Source: Octopus vulgaris (Eukaryota). From it: DNA of 64,000 nt. The notes beneath the pieces are model-generated. The model searched no databases. It was given only the letters and a program-made list of their open reading frames with translations, and was not told where the DNA came from. The translations under genes and the position numbers were made by a program. Below are positions 3,396 to 47,352 of the stretch, piece by piece. The DNA lies in NCBI GenBank assembly GCA_951406725.2, contig OX597835.1:21018001-21082000 (forward strand), written 5' to 3'. Every line of letters begins with the position of its first letter. The first letter of the stretch is position 1.

Positions 3396-3615
3396 TGTAT
3401 GCATGTATGTGTGTATGTATGTATATACAGCTAATTATTTGGATTATGGCTATATGTCTAGTAGTATGCCATTCAGAGTACGTTCACCGTTTAGACTACC
3501 TGGTGTCCCCTATAGTTACGATATAATTGTCACTGGATCTACGTCAAGAATTCTGCAGTGTTCGTTGAGTTTATAATGAGTAACGGGAACGGAAATGGAT
3601 TTAGCAAGAATCTGA

Positions 3616-3735
3616 ATTCAACACAACGATCGTTTCGACCCATTTTGTATTGACGGATGTTACACACCTAACTGTACAGTATCCCAGCTGTAAAGGACAA
3701 ATGCCGGATAGGTCGAAACGATCGTCGTGTTGAAT
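3616..3735. repeat. 25-bp inverted repeat made of two hammerhead 3' halves (GGTC GAAA CGATCG TC GTGTTGAAT)
   Basis: 3616-3640 is the reverse complement of 3711-3735 with 1 mismatch; palindromic ACGATCGT follows GAA. Confidence 0.7.
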
Positions 3736-4010
3736 AAAGGTTCTCGTTAAATCAATTTTCCAGCGACCATTCCTAAAGCCAAAATTCGTAAAGAAGTGCA
3801 ATAATTTCCGACGAACTTTTATGCAGTCATTTTACTCCGTCTCTGAGTAGAGGCATCAGCACCATGATACATCGCATCACCAACATGATACATGTTGCGA
3901 CGTCGCAACATACACCAAACGTTTGTCTAACCCTTTTATATTTATTATAAAATGTAACTCGCAAACCTGGGGTCTCTCAAAGTGTGTTTTCGTAAAGTGA
4001 GGTATTACTG

Positions 4011-5061: not shown

Positions 5062-5561
5062 TTTTTCTCTCTAGTTTCAGCTCAGAGCTGCGGCAATGCT
5101 GATGCACCGCCGTTTTGCTACACTGTTATTACTGAGAGCGTTCTCTAATATGTGGCACTTGGTGAAGAATGGTGTTTGATGTAGCTACCCTCATTTTCAC
5201 CTCTTGCCGTGAGGTAGGTTCATCTGGGACTCGACAGGAAGAGGTCCAGCTTTGATTTAAAAACCCCTATATCTACTTTGAGCAAGTTTTTCAGCCTCTT
5301 TAGGAGAATATTAAAAAGCTGTGGGCCCCTGAAACCCAGGCTGTTTCAGTAACTGGTCCTGAAGCGTGATGGCATTGCTAGGATCCTTGGCACTATGCAG
5401 TATCGTCCCGTTCTGGCATTGGTGTAGCTTTCAATGCCAAAATTTGGCATAATTCCTTCTAGGATCTTCCAGATATATATTACTGCATACCTCTCCCGTC
5501 TTCTCTCCAGGGAGTAGAGTATTAGCTGCTTCAATCTTTCCCAGTAGTTGAGCTGTTTCAA
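5062..5561 (-). mobile_element. 5'-truncated CR1/L2-group LINE 3' end (RT C-terminus plus 3' UTR)
   Basis: ORF 5346-5561 LNYWERLKQLILYSLERRRERYAVIYIWKIL continues past a stop as NSLGFRGPQLFNIL...FKSKLDLFLS; ends with stem-loop CAGCTCTGAGCTGAAAC. Confidence 0.85.
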
Positions 5562-5730
5562 TAAACAACCTGTCCTGATTAAAATCTGTCCTGGACGGAC
5601 ATTTGAACTCTGAATGTAATGACAAACGAAACGCCGCTCAGTATTTTGTCTGGTGCGCTAACGGTACTGCCAGCTCGTCGCCTTAAATGCCTTAATAATC
5701 ATAGAACTTTGCTTAATCAATAATTCTAGA

Positions 5731-11707: not shown

Positions 11708-11711
<4 letters not shown>

Positions 11712-11837
11712 CGCATATTTGCCATTTGAATATGGCTAACTGTAGTTTGTAGCCCCAGGAAGATATCTCCTCCCGCTGGCTATAGACACACTATCTGTGC
11801 CCTATCAGTATTTGTGAAGGGAAGTCATCCTTCCCGT

Positions 11838-11840
<3 letters not shown>
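11708..11840 (-). mobile_element. Truncated fragment of the 353-bp retrozyme-like family (stops just before the hammerhead)
   Basis: GCCATTTGAATATGGCTAAC...AGACACACTATCTGTG...GTCATCCTTCCCGTCTT aligns with 17198-17350; flanked by (TA)n. Confidence 0.85.
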
Positions 11841-14261: not shown

Positions 14262-14348
14262 ATGCAGTACGACCGTTTCAGGCGCTCCGTTCAATTGAAC
14301 AATGCAATCACTACATCAATTTAAATGCAGGGCTATCCTCAGCTGCAT
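14262..14348 (-). ncRNA. Candidate type I hammerhead ribozyme with long, imperfect stem II
   Basis: Minus strand: ATGCAG-CTGAGGA-(~56 nt)-GAAA-CGGTCG-TA-CTGCAT. Perfect 6-bp stem I and intact core; base of stem II pairs poorly. Confidence 0.55.
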
Positions 14349-17149: not shown

Positions 17150-17350
17150 ACAATGATAAATATCAAAGTGAGTTATATACAGTAGCGGTAACACATCGTG
17201 ACGTATTTTTGCCATTTCAATATGGCTAACCCCTAAGGGTGGATGCTACTGTAGTTTTTAGCCCCAGGAGGACACACTCCTCCAGCTGGCCATAGACACA
17301 CTATCTGTGTCCTGTCAGTATTTGCAAAGGGAAGTCATCCTTCCCGTCTT

Positions 17351-17420
17351 CAACTTATGATACACACGGACTCGAGTTTCGAGGTATTGACCTCTCGTCA
17401 GCGTGTGACAATCATAGTTG
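17351..17420 (-). ncRNA. Type I hammerhead ribozyme
   Basis: Reverse complement of the copy at 17717-17786; predicted cleavage between 17369 and 17368. Confidence 0.93.
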
Positions 17421-17716
17421 TCGCCGATAATTAGATTTCCTTCACAAATATTTATACTTTTTCCAGCGTCCACTGTCGCTGATATTGAAAAAGTGAAATC
17501 AAACAATGATAAATATCAAAGTGAGTTATATACAGTAGCATCCACCCTTAGGGGTTAGCCATATTGAAATGGCAAAAATACGTCACGATGTGTTACCGCT
17601 ACTGTATATAACTCACTTTGATATTTATCATTGTTTGATTTCACTTTTTCAATATCAGCGACAGTGGACGCTGGAAAAAGTATAAGTATTTGTGAAGGAA
17701 ATCTAATTCTCGGCGA

Positions 17717-17786
17717 CAACTATGATTGTCACACGCTGACGAGAGGTCAATACCTCGAAACTCGAGTCCGTGTGTATCATAAGTTG
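17717..17786 (+). ncRNA. Type I hammerhead ribozyme
   Basis: CACACG(17730-35)-CTGACGA-GAGG tcaata CCTC-GAAA-CTCGAG-TC(17768)-CGTGTG; stem I extended by CAACTATGAT/ATCATAAGTTG; GUC cleavage after 17768. Confidence 0.95.
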
Positions 17787-17979
17787 AAGACGGGAAGGAT
17801 GACTTCCCTTTGCAAATACTGACAGGACACAGATAGTGTGTCTATGGCCAGCTGGAGGAGTGTGTCCTCCTGGGGCTAAAAACTACAGTAGCATCCACCC
17901 TTAGGGGTTAGCCATATTGAAATGGCAAAAATACGTCACGGTATATATACATATATGTATATATATATATACATATGTG

Positions 17980-18200: not shown

Positions 18201-19190
18201 CTGTGTTTATTTAATAAACATACATATACCTTTGCTGTACATGTAGTGAATGTTGTTAAACCGAAGTATTGTTCACGCTTTAGAAGGGAAAGAAAAGCAA
18301 ATTTAACCGATACTCCTGTTTCTACAATTTCATTAGGGTTACTTACGAACGTGTTAATCGACAAAAAGAGCGGGAGAGAAGAACGGGAATCGCTTACATC
18401 GCCCTGTCAAATATGTGATGTTGAATTACCACTGATTCTCTTAATTTAAGTATCTTCTTATTAATAAGTAGATTGTGGATTCGAATTAATTAACGACATT
18501 GCTAAATATGTGTATCTGTGAATATATTATAAATTATTTAATAATTAATTAATAACAGCAGGTGTCTCTTAGTATACAAGTCATGTTAGACGCTTGGTTT
18601 TCTGATCAGAGAAATGACTTCGTTGCTTAAACACTGCAACTGTTTGCTTAGCAAAACTAAACGTATAGATATTAGTACAAACATATTCCTAGATATTCTA
18701 AATAATTTATCCACAGCATATGTCTCCGCGCATGCGCATTCGTGTGTGTGTTTGTATTTGCGTATGTAAAACATATGAGAGAAAAAGAAAATGGAATTCA
18801 TAAAACTCTTTATTAATCACTACGATCGTCTCGACCCATCGTGCATCCGTCCCTCGCTGGTGGAATTCTGTACAACTGTTTCTGGTGCGGCCGAAAGACT
18901 CGTACGTTGGGATAACGCAAAGGAAAATGAAAATGTGCTATTTGACTGGGGAGACAAGAATGACAGTTAGAGGGTCAGAACAAAGGAAGAAGCAAAATAT
19001 AAAGGAGGCAAAGAGAGAGAAAGTGAGAGGAAAGTCGGCAAAACAGGAAAAGATAGAGAAAGAGACAGAGGAGAAAGGAATATTTCAGTGTTGGGTATGT
19101 TCCTAGTAGTACACCGATAAAGCATGTTCATTGCCTGTCTACCTGACGTTATCTCAGGTAATTATACAATTGTCGCTTAACCTACCTCAT

Positions 19191-24572: not shown

Positions 24573-24615
<43 letters not shown>

Positions 24616-24768
24616 AGGAAGAAATGGAGCTGAACGAAGATTTAACAAAATTCCTTTTTATTATTTTCTACATATGTTTCAAAGGCTGCAAAGTCCCTAA
24701 TTTGCTACCCAGGTGTCGGTTATCATTTGAATAATCCGTAATAAGATAATTCATTTATCTACTTCAAT

Positions 24769-32847: not shown

Positions 32848-33292
32848 ATATATTTGCCAACTAAATGTGACGGTCCCATAGAGGACGATGTTACTGTTGT
32901 TTTTAACCCCACGAAGATATTTCCTCCAGCTGGTTAACGACACACTATTTGTGTCCGATTAGTATTTGCGAAATCATCGCTCCCATCTCTACCTTTAGGT
33001 AATGCACACAGACCTCGCTCAGAGGTTTAATATAGCTCATTCCTCGTTTATTTCCAGATCAGCGACAGTTTGTCGCTGGAAAAAGCATATAGTGTTTTGC
33101 TAGTGGAATGGGTTTTCATTACTCGCTGGTGATTATCACACACTGAAGACGAGTAACTACTTAGAAACCCGGGTCTTTGTGTACCACGTAAGGCTAGAAA
33201 TGGGAACGATGACCTCCCCTCGCAAATACTATTCGGACACAGACAGTGTGTCGTTAGCCAGCTGCAGGAGATTCTTCCTGAGGCTAAAAATA
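32848..33292. mobile_element. Diverged retrozyme-family relative, also as two inverted arms
   Basis: 32848-33022 resembles 17203-17370 (CCTCCAGCTGG, GACACACTATTTGTGTCC, AGTATTTGC); 33058-33292 resembles 17655-17882 (CAGCGACAG..CGCTGGAAAAAG, GCAAATACT, GGACACAGACAGTGTGTC). Confidence 0.8.
33137..33181 (+). ncRNA. Type I hammerhead ribozyme, slightly decayed
   Basis: CACACA-CTGAAGA-cGAGT aact ACTTa-GAAA-CCCGGG-TC-TTTGTG; intact core, palindromic ACCCGGGT, one mismatch each in stems I and II. Confidence 0.8.
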
Positions 33293-33317: not shown

Positions 33318-33720
33318 TGTGGCTAAACAACCACATGGTTCCGGGTTCAGTCCCACTGCGTGGCATCTTGGGCAAGTGTCTTCTGCTATAGCCCCGGGCC
33401 GACCAATGCCTTGTGAGTGGATTTGGTAGACGGAAACTGAAAGAAGCCTGTCGTATATATGTATATATATATAAGTGTGTGTGTATATGTTTGTGTGTGT
33501 GTGTTTGTCCCCCTAGCATTGCTTGACAACCGATGCTGGTGTGTTTACGTCCCCGTCACTTAGCGGTTCGGCAAAAAGAGACCGATAGAATAAGTACTGG
33601 GCTTACAAAGAATAAGTCCCGGGGTCGATTTGCTCGACTAAAGGCGGTGCTCCAGCATGGCCGCAGTCAAATGACTGAAACAAATGAAAGAGTAAAAAAG
33701 AGTAAAAGAGTAAAAGAGTA
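33318..33720 (+). mobile_element. SINE family B
   Basis: Near-consensus body and (AAAAGAGT)n tail. Confidence 0.9.
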
Positions 33721-47109: not shown

Positions 47110-47352
47110 TATAGAAGCCATCTTAATATGGCTAACCACATAGGGGAGGGGGTGTTACTGTAACTTTATAGCCCCCGAAATCGTCGTCTCCAGCTGGCTT
47201 TAGACACCATTTCAGTGCCCTTGAAAGGGAGGCCATCCCTTCCTCGCAAGCCTGAGTGATACGCTCGGACTAGTTTCGGGATTATTGTCCTTTGTCAACG
47301 GGCGGTAATCACCAGGTCGACTGGTGGTTACCGCCCGTTGACTGGTGGTTAT
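47110..47352 (-). mobile_element. Distant retrozyme-family relative with a decayed hammerhead (47251-47316)
   Basis: Shares AGCCAT..AATATGGCTAACC, TAGCCCC and CTCCAGCTGGC with the 353-bp monomer; minus strand CGCCCG-TTGACAA-AGGA caataa TCCC-GAAA-CTAG-TC-CGAGCG. Confidence 0.7.

Follow-up and report, generated by a model that had tools for sequence, protein, structure and literature searches.

Palindromic stem III segments in hammerhead motifs of retrozyme-like and Penelope-like repeats of Octopus vulgaris

Palindromic stem III, dimeric cleavage and the control of multimers versus circles are already published features of hammerhead ribozymes in repetitive DNA. Perreault et al. 2011 (PMC3088659, Fig. 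S8 legend) noted that, in repeat-type hammerheads, a palindromic stem III and loop III permit a dimer, and Cervera and de la Peña 2014 (PMC4209133) described a palindromic loop, a U3-A8 variant and a dimer model, together with the idea that multimers are cut while monomeric circles are spared. The dimer model is summed up, with Forster 1988 and Lunse 2017, in PMC6765202. According to the available parts of Cervera and de la Pena 2020 (PMC7229834), hammerheads having two pairs and a tetraloop cleave efficiently as monomers among invertebrate retrozymes, at ~0.8 and ~0.1 per min for monomeric coral and mussel retrozymes, respectively, and most invertebrate type I motifs are described as efficient monomers there and in PMC7761336. 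In a recent preprint (Li, Clavereau and Pollet, 10.64898/2026.07.22.740005), one of nine frog dimer constructs cleaved in vitro, which cautions against assuming activity.

Among the literature titles searched, none concerned this octopus lineage. Here, we present the analysis of a 64,000-nucleotide stretch of Octopus vulgaris DNA (hereafter the window), a microsatellite-rich part (G+C 34%) of a 2.8-Gb genome in 227 contigs. No host gene was found near the focal hammerhead. An initial annotation had proposed that the segment between GAAA and the cleavage site stays palindromic while its sequence changes across hammerhead relatives, as a result of selection for dimeric cleavage, which would leave uncut any single copy lying in host pre-mRNA.

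Hammerhead motifs of the window

The six segments cited in that annotation had been read with correct letters and places, and every one is a perfect palindrome. By sequence, the window motifs are type I hammerheads of retrozyme-like and Penelope-like repeats, and putative ribozymes. The focal copy and its insertion comprise the following features:

33137..33181, plus strand: focal type I hammerhead, a decayed copy in canonical order, open at stem I
33137-33142/33176-33181, plus strand: focal stem I, with one C.U mismatch (33141/33177)
33143-33149, plus strand: focal core CUGAAGA, followed by stem II
33150-33163, plus strand: focal stem II, with a C10.1.A11.1 mismatch typical of the subfamily
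33164-33167, plus strand: focal GAAA (C17 stands at 33175)
33167..33174, plus strand: focal palindromic stem III/loop 3, ACCCGGGU, the majority state of its subfamily
33051..33290, plus strand: sense body of an old retrozyme-like copy, 71% identical to a 353-bp unit, with the insertion's single ribozyme inside
32849..33014, minus strand: inverted 5'-truncated copy of the focal element, without ribozyme, adjoining the focal sense copy

The remaining hammerhead-related features of the window are:

17197..17940, both arms: young insertion, two inverted 343-nt arms (99%) between (TA)n runs, unit of 353 bp (17588-17940)
17730..17774, plus strand: intact type I hammerhead of the young subfamily, core at 17736, segment ACUCGAGU at 17760-17767
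17363..17407, minus strand: identical hammerhead in the inverted arm, uncited in the initial annotation, core at 17401, ACUCGAGU at 17377-17370
47262..47304, minus strand: related type I hammerhead, U3-A8 core (UUGACAA) at 47298, segment ACUAGU at 47274-47269
3650..3760, plus strand: 3' stub of a long-stem-II hammerhead family, segment ACGAUCGU at 3718-3725, CUGANGA absent here
3593..3643, minus strand: inverted partial copy of the preceding stub, also uncited, ACGAUCGU at 3633-3626
18787..18874, minus strand: 3' stub of the same family as 3718, ACGAUCGU at 18829-18822, GAGA for GAAA, without core
24600..24702, minus strand: 3' stub of another long-stem-II family, segment ACAUAUGU at 24677-24670, core absent here and present in genomic copies
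14263..14347, minus strand: separate type I hammerhead, also uncited, segment ACGGUCGU self-complementary with G.U pairs

The focal motif runs from the stem I 5' strand through CUGAAGA, stem II, GAAA, ACCCGGGU and C17 to the stem I 3' strand. With ~89% identity to its nearest full-length genomic relatives and one stem I pair lost, it stands alone as a decayed member of a lineage of ~350-bp tandem repeats. This lineage appears to be a non-LTR retrozyme put in place by Penelope-like machinery. Three sequencing runs guessed to be RNA gave zero cover of the focal ribozyme at 95% likeness, a result uninformative on expression. The focal insertion is directly adjoined by a high-copy SINE-like repeat (33326-33440). 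Elsewhere in the window, a further fragment of the 353-bp lineage without ribozyme (11708-11840, minus strand) and a LINE-like ORF end fragment (5346-5657, minus strand; by eye similar to an 819-aa ORF in locus L343) were observed.

The cited sites differ in completeness and kinship. Whole motifs stand at 17736, 33143 and 47298, whereas 3718, 18822 and 24670 are 5'-truncated 3' stubs, and the GAAA said to precede each segment is replaced by GAGA at 18822. The stubs are nonetheless hammerhead-derived, because in their genomic families CUGANGA precedes GAAA by 55-78 nt, with a long stem II between the two. Likewise, the description of the sites as relatives holds for 17760, 33167 and 47269, which are homologous (68-71% by BLAST), but the 3718/18822 family and the 24670 family have no BLAST match to them in the window. 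Stems II of 54-80 nt with inner helices are found in several families (window 3650-3760 and 24600-24702; loci L097, L101, L125, L144 and L207); they put the core far from GAAA, and standard descriptors would overlook such families. In the window, no Rfam model reached its gathering score, and no hammerhead was among the 150 listed of 673 E-value matches.

In the young hammerhead (17730-17774), a 6-bp stem I extends past a UGU bulge and a 4-bp stem II carries a 6-nt loop. Among relatives, both the stem I pair next to the core and a stem II pair occur as A-U or as G-C, which is compensatory change. The base pair 10.1-11.1 of stem II, usually G-C in type I hammerheads, is G-C in the young subfamily; older subfamilies, that of the focal copy among them, have C.A, U.U, C.U or A-U, and the same wandering among C.A, C.U, U.U, A-U and G-C was observed across the subfamilies of the focal lineage at loci L002-L030 and L261-L327; a U.U at this position is on record for an axolotl motif.

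Palindromy and loop states across the genome

The palindromy noted in the window is real and holds beyond it. Our sample consisted of 120 stretches of 10 kb, namely 118 evenly spaced ones (1.18 Mb) and the two window flanks. A strict descriptor, in which the core and stems I and II were fixed and the A15.1-U16.1 segment was left free, found 23 cores in the 118 stretches: 15 carry perfect palindromes, 4 more become palindromic with G.U, 2 fail at the centre only and 2 fail otherwise, while reversed-sequence controls gave 0 hits. With a looser descriptor applied to all 120 stretches, 20 of 48 segments were palindromic (31 of 48 with G.U), compared with 0 of 10 (1 of 10 with G.U) in the control.

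Since one or two outer pairs are part of every stem III, the inner positions were tested as the informative ones. The cluster set was built from 260 loci and the window (1.70 Mb; 127 cores in 23 clusters), and the inner-pair test used the 17 clusters with even segments of at least 6 letters, omitting 6 of the 23 (4 of odd length and 2 of four letters). The innermost pair was Watson-Crick in 12 of 17 clusters (p 1.2e-4 to 2.7e-4, the clusters being partly dependent), with four different dinucleotides, and both tetraloop pairs were kept in 8 of the 15 clusters with segments of at least 8 letters (p 1e-6 to 4e-6, with the same partial dependence). Three of the 17 clusters are the families of the initial annotation itself; among the 14 others, the innermost pair was kept in 9. 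In one cluster (L021) an ACGU motif was parsed wrongly, and cluster counts are incomplete, since stem mismatches put both the focal copy and the ACUAGU family out of reach of the descriptor. The segment varies between families in sequence and length (4-12 nt), its place between A15.1 and U16.1 being constant. Among the longer segments, one of 12 nt is a perfect palindrome, another of 12 nt is palindromic with G.U, and those of 9-11 nt fail only at the centre (L125 and L032, both minus strand, L107, L189 and L222).

Within the focal lineage, a search with the loop left free returned 1889 exact matches and none in the control. By hand count, the first 100 listed of these comprised 71 perfect palindromes (64 UCGA, 6 CCGG and 1 UGCA), 10 UCGG and no CCGA. 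Whole-genome counts of an 18-letter pattern gave UCGA 1286, UCGG 274, CCGG 170 and CCGA 12, the last as scattered singletons. A single change separates UCGG, and likewise CCGA, from either palindrome, and each is the reverse complement of the other; read on the ribozyme strand, UCGG self-pairs through G.U and CCGA gives C.A mismatches. Decay of a DNA palindrome after insertion should therefore yield both equally, against an observed ratio of 274 to 12 that counts copies and not events.

The loci were further placed on a tree of 83 rows with the four loop letters masked, including all 12 CCGA copies and 25 UCGG rows taken from the first-listed of the 274 loci. UCGG fell into two starred clades (7 and 3 rows) and an older grade between CCGG and UCGA copies, requiring 9 changes for 25 rows, a number that 0 of 500 label shuffles reached. 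CCGA required 11 changes for 12 rows, matched by 221 of 500 shuffles, and clustered no more tightly than shuffled labels. The bootstrap of this tree is unsettled and its root was placed merely for display, so that no sequence of changes can be read from it. The tree supports only about two or three amplifications. Among old inserted copies, the palindrome was kept in 17 of 35. Since inserted copies lose it by decay, selection apparently operates in lineages that replicate and not on copies already inserted, and these patterns together point to selection on RNA pairing between two copies within such lineages.

Repeat units, insertions and Penelope-like elements

The young unit measures 353 bp, and each of its best 40 full-length genomic matches has 100% identity across 161 bases. 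Units of 352-353 bp with one type I hammerhead each stand head to tail, with a 353-bp spacing in L057 and nine cores at 352-bp spacing in L344, and no ORF was seen in the 353-bp unit, whose length falls within the 150-450 bp of non-LTR retrozymes. The nine-core array (L344:1400-4548, G000:C2) has the core CCGAUGA (U4 to C) and a C.A base of stem II; this core change is common to L344 and to related copies at L264, L265 and L290, so the variant was amplified. The predicted 353-nt circle is strongly self-paired (z -6.9 versus 60 shuffles). Assembled contigs from three runs guessed to be RNA span the unit together with its head-to-tail joint, which also stands in genomic tandems, and the contigs therefore cannot separate a circle from a tandem.

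We distinguished 24 insertions of the young subfamily (30 loci): at least two same-strand ribozymes occur in 11, copies on both strands in 10, and a single ribozyme in 7. Partial tandems, 5'-truncated copies in inverted orientation, a short one-end tail and microsatellite flanks were seen among the insertions, and the portions available of PMC8557442 list these features, with microsatellites as targets, as hallmarks of Penelope-like insertion. The insertions end at constant points, either where the unit stops or behind a 45-48-nt tail, and border on (TA)n. Because the fixed end lies ~170 nt beyond the predicted cut and copies continue through the cut site, a circle or uncut multimer likely served as template.

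A young intact Penelope-like element is present in the same genome (L340:3722-6076; 105 scored matches, all at least 98% identical). Its 784-aa frame contains RT and GIY-YIG domains (RVT_1 at E 3.5e-8; GIY-YIG at E 3.8e-4, weaker than Pfam's cut-off), and its own U3-A8 hammerhead, with the palindromic segment ACCGGU, lies in the 3' region ~840 nt downstream. Except for one adjacent stub, the window families gave no sequence match to the loci of this element; among window ORFs of at least 100 aa, no RT plus GIY-YIG ORF is flanked by the repeat; and no autonomous element bearing the window's exact repeats was found. An RT ORF beside a copy of the 3718 family (L111) was considered as a donor and rejected as a chance adjacency, because its intact copies carry a different hammerhead. 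Near copies of the 24670 family, retroelement-like ORFs (L136:2013-2969 and L140:3-725) have a YRDD motif and, by eye, a GIY-YIG-like end; they gave no Pfam match and possibly represent a divergent Penelope-like clade.

Pairing between copies, alternative readings and known systems

Folding predictions bear on how the segment could pair. Alone, a segment of 6-8 nt is predicted to form a 1-2-bp hairpin at +2.4 to +6.0 kcal/mol, and two copies a 6-8-bp self-duplex at -4.8 to -14.9 kcal/mol. The double hammerhead is the predicted minimum in two of three natural tandems. In the natural two-unit young tandem it is the free minimum (-144.2 kcal/mol, versus -126.9 for two monomers) with a shared-helix probability of only 0.40-0.53; this probability is 0.82-0.98 in a second array and 0.24-0.28 in the UCGG tandem, where the double hammerhead is not the minimum. 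The folding model omits core and loop-loop contacts, so that monomers are undervalued.

In our judgement, the palindrome is probably maintained because replicating RNAs of the retrozyme and Penelope type are selected for forming a double-hammerhead helix. Within a tandem transcript, two copies would pair through stem III into a double hammerhead, which would cut the multimer into unit-length RNAs. By extension from published retrozyme work, a host ligase may close the cut units into circles, whose recutting would be prevented by the weak stem III of the monomer, and a Penelope-like RT/GIY-YIG protein could copy round the circle or along the multimer, leaving partial tandems in which one end is fixed. 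It would be the replicating RNA that is under constraint, with inserted copies such as the focal one left to decay. Of the initial proposal of selection for dimeric cleavage, the part that stands is pairing between copies, argued for by the inner-position enrichment, the excess of UCGG over CCGA, the amplification of UCGG and not CCGA, and the double-hammerhead minimum in most of the natural tandems; a requirement for the dimer does not follow, as similar invertebrate hammerheads cleave as monomers (PMC7229834, in the parts available). The amplified subfamilies show a G.U-tolerant path, CCGG-UCGG-UCGA. More tentatively, and without quite leaning towards it, we suggest that the double hammerhead may be the in vivo working form even for the class with two pairs plus a tetraloop, and that the series CCGG, UCGG, UCGA, with UCGG amplified more than once and CCGA never, may record compensatory evolution of an inter-copy helix via G.U, alongside the wandering stem II base pair.

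The strongest rival, which we nevertheless regard as rather unlikely, is that these ribozymes are monomer-competent, with two pairs and a tetraloop, and that the palindrome is an optional booster or an inheritance from Penelope-type minimal hammerheads. The canonical helix sizes, UGU bulge in stem I and 6-nt loop II of the young motif fit such a reading, as do the 7 of 24 young insertions with one ribozyme only and, in the available text of PMC7229834 and PMC7761336, monomer cleavage by similar invertebrate motifs. However, segments of 6 and 4 nt form at most one pair as monomers, CCGA was never amplified, and the inner loop letters vary between families yet stay complementary, for which inheritance alone is no explanation.

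Selection at the level of the host, which would keep a weak palindromic stem III for sparing pre-mRNAs that contain one sense copy, appears improbable. A single linear unit does have a near-zero predicted monomer stem III, and retrozyme copies are scarcer than expected in Xenopus introns and exons, so genic insertions have a cost. Yet the 11 of 24 young insertions with at least two same-strand ribozymes would not be spared, 10 of 24 contain an antisense copy, and the window's inverted insertion folds as one long hairpin whatever its loop. Moreover, old copies decay out of the palindrome, and any weak stem III, palindromic or not, would spare host pre-mRNA; no literature title on sparing through a palindromic stem III was found among those searched.

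That the palindrome is a feature of DNA (an endonuclease or protein site, or a symmetric product of CpG decay) and not an RNA helix is very improbable: double CpG decay can convert palindromes, ACAAUUGU standing beside ACGAUUGU in one cluster, but a double-stranded DNA site is blind to UCGG versus CCGA, so that the strand asymmetry of 274 to 12 largely refutes this, and the segment is family-specific in sequence and length (4-12 nt) at the fixed position A15.1-U16.1.

As the principle of a double hammerhead paired through a palindrome is already in print, the finding leaves the field unchanged. What this genome adds is a clean natural test, with subfamilies one loop letter apart and a strand asymmetry separating RNA pairing from DNA symmetry, in a young family with many identical copies that shares its genome with an intact Penelope-like element. 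These octopus subfamilies are ready constructs for asking if invertebrate retrozymes need the dimer in vivo. The apparent within-lineage path through G.U would be a modest addition to the published principle; in the available parts of PMC3088659, the repeat-type hammerheads are presented without such a path, unlike the focal lineage.

The octopus repeats share with the Penelope-like pseudo-LTR hammerheads of PMC4209133 (as far as its available text goes) the palindromic 15.2-16.2 and loop 3, the U3-A8 variant, long helix II, opposite-strand copies 100-700 bp apart, the dimer model and a proposed regulation of multimers versus circles, but the focal lineage differs from the minimal motifs described there in its 6-8-nt segment and canonical stems. 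Penelope-like co-occurrence and monomer, dimer and multimer copies are likewise found in the preprint of Li, Clavereau and Pollet, which is vertebrate-centred and, in the portion available, leaves palindromes unmentioned. With the metazoan non-LTR retrozymes of PMC7229834, the octopus lineage has in common tandem units (352-353 bp, versus 350-390 in mussel), canonical type I helix sizes, the lack of an ORF and a strongly self-paired predicted circle; cephalopods are absent from the accessible part of that account. Finally, the axolotl motif in the same paper has a palindromic tetraloop like those described here, and cleaves better as a dimer.
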